A stretch of DNA of 64,000 nucleotides from Nitrospira japonica (GTDB lineage Bacteria; Nitrospirota; Thermodesulfovibrionia; Thermodesulfovibrionales; SM23-35). A program made the translations under genes and the position numbers. The DNA lies in the NCBI GenBank assembly GCA_020725385.1, contig DYFC01000032.1, forward strand, positions 1 to 64,000. Reading direction: 5' to 3'. Below are positions 41,706 through 55,325 of the stretch, piece after piece. The notes under the pieces are model-generated. The model was not told where the DNA came from, searched no databases, and saw only the letters and a program-made list of their open reading frames with translations. Every line of letters begins with the position of its first letter. Position 1 is the first letter of the stretch.

Positions 41706-41818
41706 TTTGGAGATCTTTTTTTCGGAAAACTCAGTCCGCACATCGAGTGGTTTCCCACTCAGGCACCGTAGCATCTCCACGCTCGGTTGCCGAATCCTCC
41801 TCGGATTGCTCCTGATGT
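41706..41818 (-). ncRNA. SAM-I/IV-type riboswitch aptamer
   Basis: P1 ACAUC/GAUGU, AGGAG junction, P2 AAUCC/GGAUU, CGGCAACC...GGUGCC P3, P4 GAGUGG-GAAA-CCACUC, P5 CGGA/UCCG, 3' tail AUCUCCA complementary to UGGAGAU at the tip of P3. Confidence 0.85.
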
Positions 41819-42090
41819 TATGTTATTTTAACATATTTCCATTCAGAAAAGCTTCAATATTTTTTTTGATTTTATCTTCTCTTTTGCCTTAATATATGCT
41901 TCGTTAGGTCTAATGGATTTGTAATGATAAGTAAATCTTTTAGAGAATCTTGTTTGAAATCTTAACTATGAAATTTTAAGTGCCCAAACCAATTGAAATG
42001 ATTTTTACTTTAAGACTTCCTCTTGTTAATTCGACAAATGTAAAGATTTATGATTGTTCTCTAAAAAGTTGTTGAATAAATAGACACACT

Positions 42091-42313
42091 GTCATTCCCC
42101 GATTTACCTGCCCACTGTTTTTGTGGCGGGATCGGGGAATCCAGTTTTAGCCTTATTACCGGTTACTGCGCCATGTCTTTTTAAAGTTTCAAGCATGCCC
42201 TCTGGTTTTACTGGAGGGTTGTGGTATGACAGAAACTTTGGATTCTCCGGTCAAGTAAGCCCACTGGCTTGCTTGACCGCCATTTGTTTGGCGGAACCGA
42301 AGGGCCAGAGAAT
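42091..42313. repeat. REP-like composite element (GTCATTCCCCGAT..ATCGGGGAATCC plus the half shared with 19573-19649)
   Basis: Palindromic halves with nested small palindromes; right end lacks the terminal GAC seen at 19647-19649. Confidence 0.75.
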
Positions 42314-42368
42314 TTCATTTTTAATCTCTCACTTTCACGTTCGTCTTTCACTCTGCCAAAGGCAGCCC

Positions 42369-43354
42369 GTCGCAGTCCTTTATTCATCAAGGCTTATTTT
42401 CTCTCTGACGAATTACTTAACGGTGAATTAAAAAAACGGATTGAAAGTCGCAGTCCTTTATTCATCAAGGCAGGCTGGCATGGCCAGAGTGAACGTTAAA
42501 AGTTGAAAGTGATAAAAATTATTTTTTCAATGAATCAATCATTTTACTAAGCATTGCTCGTATCTCCTGACAGGTTAATTCTCTCATTTCAAATATGTTG
42601 CTATCAATAAAATTTAATCGCTTTATCTTCTCATACCAGTCAATTGTCTCATTGGTTGAGCCCCTCGCAATATATAAATAATGTTCAAATTCTCTGCCTT
42701 TACGCCTTCCATATCCTTCAGCTATATTCGCTGTTATTGATGAGACACTTCTTAATACTTGATTCGCAATAATTCTGGCAACCTCTGTCTTTGGAAAAGT
42801 TTCAATGTCTTTTAAAACATCTTCAAATAATTTCATCCCTGCTTGCCATACCTTTAGCTCTCTAAAGTCTTTCATTTTTTAATCACTCACTTTCACTTTC
42901 GTCTTTCACTCTGCCAAAGGCAGCCCGTCGCAGTCCTTTATTCATCAAGGCTTATTTTCTCTCCCTACATACAGTTATCCAGTATTTCCAAAAGGGAATG
43001 CTAAGAAAGTCGCAGTCCTTTATTCATCAAGGCTTATTTTCTCTCATGTACTTGCAGAACTTACTGCTAATCCTACTCTTAGTCGCAGTCCTTTATTCAT
43101 CAAGGCTTATTTTCTCTCATTAAAAGTATAAATTTCTGCGGTCTGTTTTTGTTTTGTTATAAGTCGCAGTCCTTTATTCATCAAGGCTTATTTTCTCTCG
43201 TTTCAAAATTGTACGTGACTTTCATTGTTAATAACTCTGGGTCGCAGTCCTTTATTCATCAAGGCTTATTTTCTCTCGCATTCTGACGATCGATTCGTCT
43301 TTGCTCGTCGCAAGAAAGTCGCAGTCCTTTATTCATCAAGGCTTATTTTCTCTC
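42369..43354 (-). CRISPR. CRISPR array, repeat GAGAGAAAATAAGCCTTGATGAATAAAGGACTGCGAC (37 nt): 7 full repeats, 1 partial, 6 normal spacers and one 455-nt gene-containing insert
   Basis: Identical repeats start (+ coordinates) at 42369, 42927, 43009, 43082, 43163, 43241, 43318; 25-nt partial at 42447-42471; spacers 41, 45, 36, 44, 41, 40 nt. Orientation inferred from the leader next to cas2 and the ..GAC 3' end. Confidence 0.97.
42519..42875 (-). CDS. Four-helix-bundle protein (23S rRNA IVS / Avd-like family) inside the CRISPR array
   Basis: FRELKVWQ..Q..RSVSSITANIAEGYGR..F..YL.IARGS..E family pattern; 118 aa, intact. Confidence 0.92.
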   Translation of the reverse strand: MKDFRELKVWQAGMKLFEDVLKDIETFPKTEVARIIANQVLRSVSSITANIAEGYGRRKGREFEHYLYIARGSTNETIDWYEKIKRLNFIDSNIFEMRELTCQEIRAMLSKMIDSLKK

Positions 43355-43552
43355 CGCACCTCCATATTATTCAATAAAATCATGAAGTTAAAATGCTTAT
43401 TTCTGTAACATTGAGTTATCAACAACTTAATCATACATGAAAAGTTGGTTTTTCTATTTTCAAAGAACAAAAATATATTAATTTTCAATCTGTTAGCTTA
43501 TTTTCTGTAACCTTCTATATTTTTTATTATCCACAAAACTTCGTATAACTAC
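43355..43552 (-). promoter_or_regulatory. CRISPR leader with IHF-like sites and a direct repeat
   Basis: AT-rich; TATCAACAACTTA (43417-43429) fits WATCAANNNNTTR; GCTTATTT(T)CTGTAAC at 43395 and 43496. Confidence 0.75.
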
Positions 43553-43825
43553 TTATAATATAAAGACATTTTTGTCTTTTGAGATTTCTCCTTTGCCAAA
43601 AACCTTTGCAACGCCCTCACACTTTGCACATAGTGCATATATTCTCACGCTGTCTTCGTCAGATACTATTCTTTCCAGCTTATTTATCATCTTCTGAAGT
43701 AGTTTATTGTCAAGAATACATTCGAATACACTATATTGTACTCTTGTGCCAAAGTCAAGCATAACTTTAGCAATTTTATCACGTTTCTTATCATCAGGAA
43801 TGTCATATGAAACAATATAAAACAT
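43553..43825 (-). CDS. cas2: CRISPR-associated endonuclease Cas2
   Basis: YIVSYDIPDDKKR, GTRVQYSVFEC, DSVRIY. Confidence 0.97.
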   Translation of the reverse strand: MFYIVSYDIPDDKKRDKIAKVMLDFGTRVQYSVFECILDNKLLQKMINKLERIVSDEDSVRIYALCAKCEGVAKVFGKGEISKDKNVFIL

Positions 43826-43889: not shown

Positions 43890-44888
43890 TCATACCTGTA
43901 ACAAAAAAGGTGTATATGCTGAACCACCCTTAATATAATTTGCCAGCTTCTCTGCCTGAATCCTGAAACATTTTCTAAATGTTGTGTTTTCGCTTGTTTC
44001 GGGATGTTTGAATTCATTGGCAAAAAACCTTTCATATTCTTCAAAGTATCTTTTCATTGACTCTCTCTTAAGGTACATGCCTTCAGCTTTGGGATTAACA
44101 TAAAAATCATCTTTTTTAAATATGCCATAGTTAATAAGATATAAAGTAAATCTATCAATAACAGCCCTGAATTCTTCCTGTAAATCAGAGGCAAGTGAAG
44201 CTCTTCCATATTCGGCACTATGAAAATATCCAAGATACGGGTCGAAACCGAGGCCATCAAGTAATGACATAATTTCATTGAATACCAGCGTATAACCGAA
44301 GGATAAGAGTGCATTGACAGGATCGGTTGACGGGTGTTTTTTTCTTCCATTAAAAGTGAATTCCTTTAAAATCATTTTGCCAAAGGCTGTAAAATAAACC
44401 TTAGCAATTATACCCTCGATACCCATTAGAGAATTAATATCAATGCCTGTCACAATGCTGTCAAAGAACTTCTTCATCTCATTTGTTTCTCCTGAAAAGT
44501 CAATCTGTGGATGATTATAGGAAAAAGACCTGATAACGTTGAGACAATTTGTGATTTTTACTCTAAGAATAATTTTTGATAAATTCAATCTGAATTCTAT
44601 ATCCCAGTATTTTTTAAATTGTTCTATTCTTAATTCGATATTTTTTGTTGATGGAGACGTTATTTGACCGATGAGTCTCCCTGTTCTCGATAGAATGGCC
44701 ATTTCAATGCCATGTTCAAAAAGTTCATGAATTGCCTGAGTTGTAAACTGAACGTTGCCGAATATCATGACAGACTCAATCTTGTTGCAAGGAACATCAA
44801 GGAGCACATCGTTTTCCTTACGAACTATGAGTCTGTCCCCTGTTTTACAAAGAATTGCGCCCTGTTCGGTTATGTAAAGATTTGCCAT
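43890..44888 (-). CDS. cas1: CRISPR-associated endonuclease Cas1
   Basis: LYITEQGA, LMGIEG, DPVNALLSFGY, DPYLGYFH, LASDLQEEFR. Confidence 0.97.
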   Translation of the reverse strand: MANLYITEQGAILCKTGDRLIVRKENDVLLDVPCNKIESVMIFGNVQFTTQAIHELFEHGIEMAILSRTGRLIGQITSPSTKNIELRIEQFKKYWDIEFRLNLSKIILRVKITNCLNVIRSFSYNHPQIDFSGETNEMKKFFDSIVTGIDINSLMGIEGIIAKVYFTAFGKMILKEFTFNGRKKHPSTDPVNALLSFGYTLVFNEIMSLLDGLGFDPYLGYFHSAEYGRASLASDLQEEFRAVIDRFTLYLINYGIFKKDDFYVNPKAEGMYLKRESMKRYFEEYERFFANEFKHPETSENTTFRKCFRIQAEKLANYIKGGSAYTPFLLQV

Positions 44889-45821
44889 CTACCAGCCTCT
44901 TTTTTTCTTAAGATAATATGCTTCCATATTCAAAGGCGGCGGGTAGTATAGAACCTTCCGCTCTCTTTTCGGTCTGTCAAACGGTACCATAATTAAGCTT
45001 TTTACAAAAGTAACGCCAAGATATTTGAAGCCTTGCTCAAAGCTAACAATATCGGATTCATCAAGTTTTAATAAAAGCCTGTCAAGAATTTCATTAGTAA
45101 ATTCAAGGGATTGTTTTGCTTTTTCAGGACTTTTGCATAGAACCAGAAAATCATCTGCATATCTCACATATCTTTGATTATTTTTTAGCATTGCTTCATC
45201 CAACTCATCAAGAAAAAGATTAGCAAGGACAGGAGACAAAGGCGATCCCTGAGGTATCCCTTTATCTATTATTTCTAAATTTTTTCCATCCCATACTTCG
45301 GATTTAACCCATAATTTTATAAGCATTTCAATGTGTTCATTATTAATATATTTGTGCACTTTTTGAAAAAGGAGTTCATGATTAACACTATCAAAAAAAG
45401 CATCAATATCAGCATCAATCACCCATTTATATCCTTCCTCATAATATTCCTTAATTTTGTAAACAGCATTTCTGACAGAACGCCCTTTTCTAAAAGCAAA
45501 ACTGCATTCCTCAAATTCTTTTTCGAGTAAAGGTTCAATAATATGCAAAACCAGAGTTTGTGCAACTCTATCGCGAACAGCAGGAACCGAAAGAGCTCTT
45601 GCTTCGCCATTACCCTTGTCCACAAGAATTTTAAGAAGCGGAAGAGGGAAATAGGTTTTTTGTCTCAATTCGTTCTCAAGCATTGCAAGATTTTTTGGCA
45701 GGTCATTCTCAAACTCTCCAATTGTTACCCCATCCACACCCGCACAACCATGGTTTTCCTTAACCTGAAAGAAGGCGGTGGAGAGAGAGTTATAATCCCA
45801 CTTTGTCAATTTCTGTAGCAT
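44889..45821 (-). CDS. CRISPR-associated reverse transcriptase (group II intron-like, stand-alone)
   Basis: AGVDG, R.LSVPAVRDRVAQ, DADIDAFFD, GIPQGSPLSPVLAN, RYADD, FKYLG; abuts cas1; no maturase X domain. Confidence 0.95.
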   Translation of the reverse strand: MLQKLTKWDYNSLSTAFFQVKENHGCAGVDGVTIGEFENDLPKNLAMLENELRQKTYFPLPLLKILVDKGNGEARALSVPAVRDRVAQTLVLHIIEPLLEKEFEECSFAFRKGRSVRNAVYKIKEYYEEGYKWVIDADIDAFFDSVNHELLFQKVHKYINNEHIEMLIKLWVKSEVWDGKNLEIIDKGIPQGSPLSPVLANLFLDELDEAMLKNNQRYVRYADDFLVLCKSPEKAKQSLEFTNEILDRLLLKLDESDIVSFEQGFKYLGVTFVKSLIMVPFDRPKRERKVLYYPPPLNMEAYYLKKKRGW

Positions 45822-54543: not shown

Positions 54544-55325
54544 ATTCAAAATTCAAGATTCAATATTCAAGAATCGGAAGAAAGACCACAGAATTATATT
54601 CTCTTTCGTCTATCTCTATCCTGCCTCCGATAAGAATAAATTCAATATGCAAAATTCAAAACCTCAAATTTATGATTCAAAACCGGCAGATTTAAAATTC
54701 AAAAAACTAATCCCGCTCATTCCTGAATCTTGAATTTTGAATCTTGAATTGTTTTGTTATTTCTTCAACTTCGTCTCTCATACTCTTGTATTCTTTTTTA
54801 TATTTCTCGCCCTTTAGTTTCGACCCCTTTAAATAATCGATAAATCCGCTTAACTGACTGGATACGTCCCTTGCCAATGCGATGCCATTCTGAAATTCCC
54901 GTTCTGTGATGTAATCCTGATCCTTTGCGATATAGAGCTGGGTTCTTGTCTCGCCTGCCGACCCTTTTGCGATGAAGAGGAACTGGATGAACTCTGTGTT
55001 CGAGCCGCGTTCAAAGCCTTCGGCGATATTGGACATGACAGAGGCCGATGCACGCCTGATCTGATCTACAAGGCTGAAGTCTTTGCTGAACGCATGTTTT
55101 TTCGTGAGGTTATAAACATACCGGACCAATTCACGCGCCTTTTGCCAGACAGGAAGTTCCTCGAAACTTTTCGGCATATCCACTCCTTAATAAAACTCAA
55201 GATTCAAGATTTAATATTCAAAACTTAAAGCTCGAAACTCAAGGCCAAACCTTAAACATGAAATTCAACATTTAAAAATCAAATTAGGAACCGGTATCTT
55301 GAATTTTGAGTTTTGAATTTTGAAT
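54544..55325. repeat. Inverted arrays of TTCAA(A/G)A heptamers on both sides of the second four-helix-bundle gene
   Basis: Forward tracts 54544-54706 and 55192-55283; reverse tracts 54724-54750 and 55296-55325. Confidence 0.8.
54707..55183 (-). CDS. Second four-helix-bundle (IVS/Avd-like) protein
   Basis: FEELPVWQKA, DQIRRASASVMSNIAEGFERGS..EFIQFLFIAKGSAGE. Confidence 0.93.
   Translation of the reverse strand: MDMPKSFEELPVWQKARELVRYVYNLTKKHAFSKDFSLVDQIRRASASVMSNIAEGFERGSNTEFIQFLFIAKGSAGETRTQLYIAKDQDYITEREFQNGIALARDVSSQLSGFIDYLKGSKLKGEKYKKEYKSMRDEVEEITKQFKIQNSRFRNERD

Follow-up and report, generated by a model that had tools for sequence, protein, structure and literature searches.

How did an intact protein-coding gene come to lie among the repeats of a CRISPR array, and does it serve the array or itself? 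These questions are raised by a 64,000-nt stretch of a Nitrospira japonica genome (contig DYFC01000032.1, positions 1 to 64,000; hereafter the window). An earlier note had described in it a "giant spacer" that carries a gene for a four-helix-bundle (4HB) protein, and had proposed an element that parasitises arrays, an RNA captured whole by reverse transcriptase (RT) and Cas1-Cas2, or an array-encoded RT accessory factor.

A gene cassette bounded by inverted repeats within a CRISPR array

The components of the locus, all on the minus strand, are listed by position:

42313-42368 (-): second cassette copy, truncated (left inverted repeat and ATGAAA, then a break), behind the last full repeat
42369-42405 (-): last full repeat (exact repeat match)
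42406-42446 (-): normal 41-nt spacer between the partial repeat and the last full repeat
42447-42471 (-): partial repeat, 25 nt, a perfect match to the 3' end of the repeat
42472-42518 (-): right terminal inverted repeat, 47 nt; a 5-bp hairpin of its own lies close to the end
42519-42875 (-): ORF of 118 aa, stop included, PF05635 / TIGR02436 (S23p family), sense to the array
42876-42926 (-): left terminal inverted repeat, 51 nt (from flank pairing)
42911-42923 (-): left-end hairpin, 5 bp with a 3-nt loop, 3 nt behind the repeat, with compensatory changes in related copies
42927-42963 (-): repeat abutting the cassette, the last of the six counted in the next line
42927-43354 (-): six full 37-nt repeats (exact repeat matches) and five normal spacers (36-45 nt)
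43355-43552 (-): leader and presumed pre-crRNA promoter, from its position between cas2 and the first repeat (43318-43354)
43553-43825 (-): cas2, upstream of the array
43890-44888 (-): cas1, upstream of the array
44889-45821 (-): separate, group-II-intron-like RT gene, upstream of the array

The insert is real, and its coordinates and all the features attributed to it hold. It spans 42472-42926 (455 nt), and its first base directly follows the last base of a repeat. In transcription order (minus strand) the locus reads full repeat, left flank, ORF, right flank, partial repeat, spacer and full repeat, with the 51-nt flank, 118 aa, 47-nt flank and 25-nt partial repeat that had been described. 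Seven full 37-nt repeats start at plus-strand positions 42369, 42927, 43009, 43082, 43163, 43241 and 43318, and an exact match search found no further occurrence of this repeat elsewhere in the genome. The proposed likeness to a spacer stands for the point of insertion, at the 3' end of a repeat, but not for the far side, where a 25-nt partial repeat takes the place of a second full one; at 455 nt, the insert also differs in length from the spacers of 36-45 nt. We read the partial repeat at 42447-42471 as a target duplication or as the leftover piece of the next repeat.

The flanks are indeed inverted repeats that close the ORF in a stem, as the note had claimed. Their duplex was predicted at -43.1 kcal/mol against -20.5 +/- 3.6 in shuffles, none of 1000 of which was as low, and the minimum-energy fold closes the ORF inside the flank stem. 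Heptamers of the GTGAAAG type follow the end hairpin in the left inverted repeat. The 4HB gene is the sole ORF of the cassette, which encodes no transposase or recombinase. As MITEs and insertion sequences (IS) do, the cassette ends in inverted repeats and has a direct duplication beside it (the final 25 nt of the repeat), but we found neither a transposase nor many dispersed copies in this genome, in which the cassette DNA matched only itself and the truncated copy. The truncated copy, which the note had missed, and its repeat form an 88-nt duplication (98% identity), and from 42313 downward the sequence matches genome-wide multi-copy repeats, which cut this copy off. Rfam searches returned no rRNA match between 38000 and 46000 and, on the cassette, one thermometer-like match of 22.4 bits, below its gathering score of 88.

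Misassembly or a unique chance insertion, either of which would have undone the earlier note, has a negligible probability. The genome is a 71-contig draft, and the supporting unitigs each reach just 25 nt into the flanking repeats, with a bridge criterion of 31 letters. Nevertheless, the insert unit was recovered from three runs of three studies, as unitigs of 503-510 nt that cover 42447-42951 or 42447-42927, and no fewer than 25 independent arrays or contigs show the same architecture (see below). One run (X6) joins 42368 to 42447, the spacer at 42406-42446 and its repeat being absent; this junction is a natural variant.

The cassette protein belongs to the S23p family and resembles Avd in fold

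The product of the ORF matched PF05635 (97.9 bits, cut-off 33.8, E 4.9e-28) and TIGR02436 (104.9 bits, cut-off 24, E 2.5e-30), and found no match in PADLOC or PHROGs. Its AlphaFold model (pLDDT 93.8) consists of four helices, and the best fold matches in the PDB were the S23p-family structures 2GSC and 2RLD (TM 0.8-0.9, 25-29% identity). Avd, the RT partner in diversity-generating retroelements (DGRs), was matched at a TM of ~0.8 with an rmsd of 1.9-2.0, 9% identity and Foldseek E values of 0.03-0.06 (4DWL and 8UBE; for 4DWL, 9% identity and E 0.057), and a sequence-profile search of the PDB at E 0.001 reached 2RLD and 2GSC only, not Avd. The kinship to Avd claimed in the note thus holds as a likeness of fold but not at the level of sequence. 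A review reports that CDD groups Avd with PF05635-like proteins in a single family (PMC10053308).

Cassettes of the same build recur in CRISPR arrays of the order and beyond

At least 21 of the order's 317 genomes, spread over 6 families, carry array-embedded cassettes, a non-exhaustive count read from the loci fetched. Beyond the order, they occur in two genomes of the phylum (G598 and G388) and in two metagenome contigs (L097 and L098). Looking for 4HB genes between CRISPR repeats elsewhere, a check that the note had suggested, yielded the architecture in at least 25 arrays or contigs. One of these lies in the same genome as the window: on contig C4, the gene behind a repeat of a second array is 47% identical to that of the window, and the partial repeat after it is degenerate and 24 nt long. 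Closer relatives of the window protein are array-embedded genes of G132 (79% identity) and G012 (74%). An order-wide profile search placed array-embedded genes at the top, with all seven best matches outside the window's genome being of this kind (E 1e-45 to 1e-59), and such genes made up 15 of the 33 in the 30 best loci versus 4 of the 60 in the next-best loci. All four cassette copies of the complete genome G006 lie in its two arrays. Related cassettes were also found between cas genes, tRNA genes and ordinary genes.

Several broader searches delimit this picture. The repeat-junction pattern, run across the 317 genomes, was non-specific on its own: 33 matches were inspected in loci, just 13 of which had a repeat end before them, and a backwards control pattern also matched many genomes. 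A contig scan with poor peptide patterns gave 2 distant loci only. A search of representatives returned 22464 relatives at E 0.001 and 20 at E 1e-30, with scores that fall without a gap, so that the size of the clade is not readable from them. Among viral contigs, no relative was found. Spacers of the fetched arrays, compared with the window's genome and all loci, gave self matches and one marginal match (30 nt, 90%, E 9e-4), hence no spacer against the cassettes was seen. PF05635/S23p genes or inverted-repeat cassettes in CRISPR arrays are not described in the portion of the literature consulted.

Besides full cassettes, we observed ORF-less copies with the same ends (G009, G012, G132, G006, G196, G070 and L097) and truncated copies (the window, G059, G210, G045 and G153). 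These derivatives share arrays with full cassettes, and one array may hold several copies; that of G207 carries four cassettes of three inverted-repeat families. All array cassettes, including ORF-less ones, are in sense orientation to the array and, by our reading, the cassette is the last array unit in most arrays with a readable trailer side.

The junctions are equally regular. Where repeats end in GGATTGCGAC or something close to it, the left junction lies directly after their last base; two further repeat families have it inside the repeat, so that insertion behind the last base is not a universal rule. On the far side, the repeat piece measures 24-25 nt, 10-14 nt or, in L097, one full repeat, the ORF-less copy sitting there between two full repeats. 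Partials of 24-25 nt, as in the window, occur in C4, G009, G012, G045, G132, G153, G207, G598 and G388. The earlier note had the partial repeat keep a Cas6 site; the 25-nt piece is there in the window, but the 10-14-nt pieces of other arrays contradict a retained site as a general rule. The right junction falls at the same few repeat positions in at least five unrelated inverted-repeat families, which suggests that some host activity recognises the repeat. We found no empty site adjoining a filled one.

The cassette genes form clades associated with CRISPR loci

A tree was built from 98 family proteins, leaving out ORFs that match fewer than 95 profile positions (including those of L057, L223 and L105 and the C56 fragment of the window's genome). 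The gene of the window falls in a clade of 15 members (SH-aLRT 99), 14 of them array-embedded and the other one situated between cas2 and cas1. Of the 14 members of a second clade (SH-aLRT 99), 8 are array-embedded genes, and none of the remaining 69 proteins is array-embedded. The distribution of this label over the tree takes 6 changes compared to ~20 in shuffles (0 of 500 as low). We take the window cassette to belong to a clade specialised for CRISPR loci.

The two measurable pairs gave dN/dS values of 0.09 and 0.12, and other pairs showed pN of 0.13-0.24 against pS of 0.77-1.06. The cassette ORF is thus under purifying selection. The end hairpin appears to be kept by compensatory changes: the cassette ends carry eight different stems, all of them paired. 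Stems and loops differ in length from one end to another; in a scripted comparison, 24 of 37 non-spacer sequences behind a repeat had a perfect stem (4 bp or more) that begins no more than 5 nt from the repeat, versus 12 of 121 spacers.

The cassette does not appear to depend on a reverse transcriptase

The locus does encode an RT beside cas1, at 44889-45821 (minus strand), as the note had stated; the top model for it is a group II intron RT, at 283.5 bits and under the cut-off of 300. Together with the fold match to Avd (TM ~0.8) and with metagenome contig L105, in which a 4HB pseudogene lies between an RT and cas1, this gene would favor an RNA captured whole by RT-Cas1-Cas2, or an Avd-like cofactor of the locus RT. 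We nonetheless consider both readings very improbable. A search for RVT_1 in five cassette-bearing genomes found an RT in only one, ~30 kb from its array, and no match in the other four, so the RT/Avd reading fails. Furthermore, the cassette-bearing arrays G012:C6 and G059:C50 adjoin cas1 without an RT, and the insert lacks the two full flanking repeats of a spacer. The cofactor reading is further contradicted by the protein itself, whose closest structures are those of the S23p family (2GSC and 2RLD), and whose resemblance to Avd was missed by the sequence profile and comes with 9% identity. Within this sample of genomes, an RT thus seems not to be required for the cassette, and its absence from four of five argues for movement as DNA rather than as RNA.

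A selfish cassette, an oversized prespacer or a domesticated module?

The cassette is a small non-autonomous DNA unit. Its terminal inverted repeats are made up of short simple repeats, and it has a hairpin at its end and a single PF05635 gene. The explanation that we prefer, and regard as somewhat probable, is that the insert is a selfish cassette of the intervening-sequence type, specialised for arrays and carried on the pre-crRNA. The array parasite proposed in the note, as one of its readings, is supported by the finding of this architecture, along with truncated and ORF-less derivatives, in at least 25 arrays or contigs. Such a cassette would enter as DNA at the repeat/spacer border, duplicating part of the repeat, and would spread within and between arrays at least partly via recombination between repeats. 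With no promoter of its own, it would ride the leader-driven pre-crRNA; on the minus strand, sigma-70-like promoters were absent from the leader to the ORF, as were terminator-like sites within array and cassette. Against this explanation stand the lack of a clear Shine-Dalgarno sequence before the ORF of the window, the absence of an encoded transposase or recombinase and of an empty site adjoining a filled one, and the left junctions that fall inside the repeat in two repeat families. A Cas6 cut in the left repeat, and in the 25-nt partial where its site is kept, would free the neighboring crRNAs, as would RNase III-type cuts in the long stem, and insertion would consequently be cheap for the host, above all at the trailer end. 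Pyrococcus Cas6 reportedly needs the 5' part of the repeat; if the same is true here, the partial repeat would stay uncut. The 4HB protein may serve the cassette, for example by binding nucleic acid of the hairpin or stem in the manner of Avd, with no role in host immunity.

Two other explanations were considered. Cas1-Cas2 could insert cassette DNA as an oversized prespacer, with no RT involved, one strand transfer taking place at the repeat/spacer border and the other at an inner repeat site, which would produce the partial duplication. Cas1-Cas2 would account for a repeat-reading host activity no less well than passive recombination does, and wherever repeats have the ending given above or a near variant, the left junction is exactly the canonical site on the spacer side. 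It is the target and not the element that sets the right junction, with 24-25-nt or 10-14-nt partials across at least five inverted-repeat families, and the joined repeat base can be read as G in most cases, like the 5' end of the repeat (our reading). The spacer-like copy of L097, and cassettes placed behind a sole, leader-proximal repeat in G174, G196 and G210, also speak for such insertion. We nevertheless consider it rather unlikely, as the repeat duplication is partial as a rule rather than full, the cassette is mostly the last array unit and not leader-proximal (again our reading), insertions occur inside the repeat in two families, and related cassettes sit repeat-free between cas genes, tRNA genes and ordinary genes. 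Moreover, G207 has four cassettes in one array but no Cas1 match at 92% completeness, and known Cas1-Cas2 systems measure prespacer length.

Alternatively, the cassette might be a domesticated, host-beneficial array factor or trailer module, inherited with its locus and moved only by repeat recombination. The strong bias to the trailer end and purifying selection would also fit such a module, as would the dedicated clade with 15 of 15 members in CRISPR-cas loci, the constant sense orientation, and partial repeats that in every genome match the local repeat exactly. The uniform orientation needs either an oriented insertion step or descent in place, a difficulty for the selfish reading. We hold domestication to be quite unlikely, however: ORF-less, truncated and stop-containing copies are common, one array can hold as many as four cassettes of three inverted-repeat families (G207), PADLOC gave no match, and the cassette was seen in just 21 of 317 genomes of the order among the loci fetched. 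In addition, the same repeat variants accompany the two sub-clades, and a single repeat variant is found with either of them.

In a further, unlikely reading, arrays of this lineage would act as integron-like docking sites for a dedicated clade of promoterless cassettes, with a repeat-reading enzyme, most plausibly Cas1-Cas2, joining cassettes of 0.1-0.5 kb at the last base of the repeat and at a fixed inner site; the leader would express the 4HB gene via the pre-crRNA, and the 4HB protein would be the mobility or maintenance factor of the cassette.

Relation to known elements and significance

The likeness to 23S rRNA intervening sequences noticed earlier holds: the build, an inverted-repeat stem that encloses an S23p ORF, and the size are similar. 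In the sections of the Coxiella report consulted (PMC4990558), the intervening sequence has 428-444 nt, a 28-bp terminal stem and heptamers before the S23p start codon, is excised by RNase III and carries an ORF reported as decaying, and the function and origin of intervening sequences are called unclear. Like intervening sequences (~100-450 nt, an inverted-repeat stem, with or without an S23p ORF; known in Coxiella, Leptospira and others), the 455-nt cassette has a long stem around an S23p/PF05635 ORF, heptamers before the start codon, and a position in sense within the gene for a processed non-coding RNA. It lies, however, in a CRISPR array at the last base of a repeat, with partial duplication of the repeat, instead of in the loop of a 23S rRNA helix. 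Its ORF is under purifying selection, unlike the one of Coxiella reported as decaying, and ORF-less copies and several copies per array are features of the cassette.

With MITEs and IS in arrays, the cassettes share terminal inverted repeats, ORF-less derivatives, direct duplication and multiple copies, but they lack a transposase in their full-length form, duplicate 10-25 nt as set by the target, have a fixed position at the repeat and are 100% sense. The portion of the literature consulted on MITEs/IS in CRISPR arrays holds no such target-specific case. As in spacer integration by Cas1-Cas2 and in casposons, the cassette starts where a spacer starts and repeat sequence is duplicated on its far side, the L097 copy between two full repeats being the most spacer-like; in contrast to a spacer, it is ~10 times longer, usually has a partial duplication, lies mostly at the trailer end, and brings its own inverted repeats and gene. 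Avd has the four-helix-bundle fold in common with the cassette protein but is the partner of a DGR RT, and four of the five searched cassette-bearing genomes have no RT. Integron cassettes are small promoterless ORFs with imperfect palindromes, in one orientation and under a shared promoter. Array cassettes may work alike, although there is no integron integrase and no attC/attI, and a CRISPR array takes the place of the integron.

Ever since S23p-type intervening sequences were discovered in 23S rRNA, where they come from, how they move and what they do have been open questions. An S23p-type cassette is now found in a second class of processed RNA genes, and its traces in arrays can be read: junctions are exact, target duplications have fixed lengths, derivatives without the ORF occur, and one protein clade is confined to CRISPR-cas loci. 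The mode of insertion, including a possible role of Cas1-Cas2, and the ligand of the 4HB protein thereby become directly testable. Annotation is affected too: programs that detect arrays would break up or cut short an array of this kind, and a "giant spacer" would be thrown out as an error. If Cas1-Cas2 inserts the cassettes, arrays would be capture platforms for whole gene cassettes and a natural case of kilobase-scale cargo integration by the CRISPR integrase. Should arrays prove to be docking sites for promoterless cassettes, this would be relevant to how the S23p rRNA intervening sequences themselves arose and what they do.

Insert anatomy and array context

A type III locus (cas6, a Cmr1-like gene, a further RAMP-like gene, csx11, cmr4, cmr5 and cmr3) lies on the minus strand of the window upstream of the CRISPR array, with a separate RT gene, cas1 and cas2 between the type III genes and the array on the same strand. 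The 37-nt repeat occurs as seven full copies in the array and nowhere else in genome G000, to which the window belongs. From the leader, the array reads as follows.

Leader side, minus strand: six full repeats and five normal spacers of 36-45 nt
42472-42926, minus strand: insert, 455 nt, after the sixth repeat from the leader
42519-42875, minus strand: ORF of the insert, 118 aa, a clear PF05635/TIGR02436 member
42447-42471, minus strand: partial repeat, 25 nt, identical to the 3' end of the window repeat
Between the partial repeat and the seventh (last) full repeat, minus strand: normal spacer, 41 nt
42313-42368, minus strand: truncated second copy (the insert's left end plus ATGAAA), behind the seventh repeat

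Array reading, family match and duplex energy confirmed the earlier note's description of a 455-nt element in the array with an intact four-helix-bundle ORF and inverted-repeat flanks. The layout was also as noted, except that the second, truncated copy had been overlooked. The flanks are imperfect inverted repeats with a predicted duplex of -43.1 kcal/mol versus -20.5 +/- 3.6 for shuffled sequences (0 of 1000 as low), and in the minimum-energy fold they enclose the ORF in a stem. The ORF product was modeled as a confident four-helix bundle (pLDDT 93.8), with the S23p-family structures 2GSC and 2RLD as nearest neighbors (TM 0.8-0.9). Neither a promoter-like site on the minus strand from the leader to the ORF nor a terminator-like site on the minus strand of the array was found.

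Between the insert and the truncated copy, 88 nt made up of the repeat and the left flank are duplicated at 98% identity, and the truncated copy ends where multi-copy repeats of the whole genome start. The abutting stretch (42050-42313) contains two or three hairpin-rich, MITE- or REP-like repeat families with 39 matches genome-wide, several of them with 80-95% identity along 50-150 nt. A SAM-I/IV riboswitch (41707-41823, minus strand; 52.4 bits, gathering score 41.1) follows closely downstream of the array region. A second PF05635/TIGR02436 gene (158 aa; 54707-55183, minus strand), located between cas6 and the Cmr1-like gene, belongs to a different clade from the insert ORF and is surrounded by inverted simple repeats of TTCAAAATTCAAGA type.

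Parts of the window stretch are present in 15 listed sequencing runs from ten studies. In three of four runs examined (three studies), unitigs of 503-510 nt extend from the partial repeat across the complete insert into the opposite repeat, reaching 25 nt into it in two runs and only its first base in run X6; the fourth run yielded a unitig over most of the ORF and the left flank. Since these unitigs end within repeats, they are not formal bridges by the 31-letter rule. Furthermore, a unitig of X6, which comes from another study, joins 42368 to 42447, so that in this population insert, partial repeat and truncated copy follow one another, and the 41-nt spacer is missing together with its repeat. 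An ordinary spacer-loss variant, this form shows that the structure occurs in nature in more than one version.

Recurrence of array-embedded cassettes

All eight PF05635 matches in G000 are enclosed by flanks that pair, in the best duplex predicted, at -30 to -110 kcal/mol (values without shuffle control). On contig C4 of this genome (10150-10749, minus strand; loci L004 and L031), a second array with a different repeat, cut by the contig end, ends with a cassette encoding a 122-aa four-helix-bundle protein 47% identical to that of the window, followed by a degenerate 24-nt 3' piece of the C4 repeat. A profile of these two proteins, searched in 201 genomes of the order, revealed a score gap. 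The top seven matches outside G000 (E 1e-45 to 1e-59) all stand directly behind a repeat ending GGATTGCGAC, and each is followed by a partial repeat, of 24-25 nt in G132, G012, G045 and G153, 10-11 nt in G174 and G087, and 15 nt (cut) behind the ORF copy of G009.

Further cases came from a junction pattern, lower-scoring loci, the same genus, the phylum and 80 metagenome contigs. The phylum search revealed cassettes in a genome of another order (G598) and one of another class (G388). Among the metagenome contigs, the genes for the two closest proteins (63% and 47% identity) each stand at the trailer end of a long array; of the remaining 78, none lies in an array, and one (L105) lies between RT and cas1. 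Overall, the search for such genes between CRISPR repeats proposed in the earlier note revealed array-embedded cassettes in 21 of 317 order genomes, spread over six families, in two more members of the phylum and on two metagenome contigs, counts that are lower bounds for the loci read. G006, a complete genome, has four copies of its cassette, all of them within its two arrays.

Several loci showed further arrangements. The ends of the two G006 arrays, 216 kb apart, share 116 nt at 100% identity (C1 1520496-1520611 and 1736973-1737088) inside a terminal stop-containing four-helix-bundle gene. One array of G207 (L064; C63 0-1000, minus strand) contains four cassettes; they represent three inverted-repeat families, and some of them are nested behind one another's partial repeats. 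G129, of the same genus as the window's genome, has two arrays with a near-identical repeat (L238/L239; C30 19000-22700), each with a degenerate mid-array window-type cassette. The right end and 25-nt partial repeat of these copies are the same as in the window, their left end is different, and of the ORF just the C-terminal portion is left; a further four-helix-bundle gene lies at the array's end. The gene order is Card1-like, cas2, four-helix bundle, cas1, cas1-like in L040 (G038:C9 1130-2874), and RT, four-helix-bundle pseudogene with an in-frame stop, cas1, cas2, array in L105 (245-3017).

Common anatomy

Where repeats end GGATTGCGAC or a near variant, the left junction is the base after the repeat's last base, and a GC-rich hairpin begins within ~5 bases of it. 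A perfect stem of at least 4 bp is present there in 24 of 37 non-spacer sequences behind such repeats, compared with only 12 of 121 spacers. Cassette ends carry eight different stems, all paired, which points to compensatory change at the end hairpin. Simple repeats come after the hairpin, built of GTGAATTAG or GTGAAAG units in the window's clade, with inverse copies at the opposite end. The right end then abuts a 3' stretch of the local repeat, which measures 24-25 nt or 10-14 nt or, in a single case (metagenome contig L097), is the full repeat; at least five inverted-repeat families that are unrelated to one another have these lengths in common. The left junction falls inside the repeat in two other repeat families (G022 and G070, 22-nt partial; G169, 19-nt partial); in a fourth (G080, 9-nt partial) it is again at the last base.

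All copies, ORF-less ones included, are sense to the array, with orientation set by cas genes or leader in the window, G006, G012:C6, G059 and L105, and inferred from the repeat family elsewhere. ORF-less copies (~95-190 nt) have the same ends and, in G009, G012, G132 and L097, lie in one array with full copies; others occur in G006 next to a truncated copy, in G070, and in G196, where a full copy was not seen. Truncated left-end remnants terminate the arrays of the window, G059, G210, G045 and G153. The cassette is the last unit in most arrays with a readable trailer side, and mid-array copies occur in G153, G006, G207, G132 and G129.

Clade specificity and selection

The window protein falls in a clade of 15 (SH-aLRT 99, stem length 1.04) in a maximum-likelihood tree built from 98 proteins of the family, which were drawn from the order, G000, G598 and two metagenome contigs. 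Of these 15, 14 are array-embedded, and the remaining one, L040, is located between cas2 and cas1. A second clade has 8 of 14 members array-embedded, and none of the remaining 69 proteins is. Array location requires 6 label changes on the tree versus ~20 in shuffles (0 of 500 as low), a test that is inflated by related rows. Among the 30 best loci, 15 of 33 genes are in arrays, and 4 of 60 among the next 60 loci; arrays account for no more than a few kilobases in these genomes of 2-3 Mb. The family is huge, with 22464 members at E 0.001 across the representative library, and with the clade profile only 20 representatives score at E 1e-30. Synonymous sites of the ORF are saturated in most pairs (pS 0.77-1.06, pN 0.13-0.24), and dN/dS was 0.09 and 0.12 in the two measurable pairs. 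These low values, with pN below pS, indicate that the protein is kept by selection.

Origin of the cassettes

In two of its three readings, the earlier note had tied the insert to the RT of the locus, as an RNA captured by RT/Cas1-Cas2 or as an RT accessory factor akin to Avd. The relation to Avd holds at fold level (TM ~0.8), but identity is 9% and the sequence profile did not reach Avd. An RVT_1 search of five cassette-bearing genomes found a match only in G006, an RT-Cas1 fusion ~30 kb from the array, while the arrays of G012:C6 and G059:C50 adjoin cas1 without RT. The cassettes are therefore independent of RT, and the RT-based readings, largely refuted, are very improbable. No Cas1 match at all was found in G207 (92% completeness).

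Having established the architecture, recurrence, clade specificity, derivatives, conserved hairpin and selection on the ORF, we interpret the insert as a selfish cassette of the intervening-sequence type, from a clade that has specialized on CRISPR loci, because the insert's build matches that of ORF-carrying 23S rRNA intervening sequences. Those of Coxiella are 428-444 nt long with a 28-bp terminal stem and heptamer repeats before the S23p start, and are excised by RNase III (PMC4990558). Like rRNA and tRNA operons, a CRISPR array is transcribed and cut into pieces; compare L189 (G161:C170, ~480-1250), where a four-helix-bundle cassette with inverted repeats of GATAGAGAT type lies between two tRNA genes (recognized by eye). 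The selfish cassette would insert at the DNA level with partial duplication of the repeat and may spread by recombination between repeats. Its ORF would be expressed from the array leader, its release could involve Cas6 and an RNase III-type enzyme, and the protein would serve the cassette. An insert cut out of the precursor would cost little, and least at the trailer end.

This reading leaves unexplained that right junctions are set by the target, that orientation is strictly sense and that copies are biased toward the trailer end. Jointly, these features leave room for two rivals. That Cas1-Cas2 inserts the cassette as an oversized prespacer is unlikely in our estimation, though a serious contender, and a domesticated array module seems improbable.

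A full-text literature search found nothing on S23p/PF05635 genes or on inverted-repeat cassettes inside CRISPR arrays. Although the cassette type itself is known, the presence of intervening-sequence-type cassettes in CRISPR arrays as their host gene, together with a protein clade of their own, appears to be new; should a CRISPR integrase insert them, this would be categorically new.
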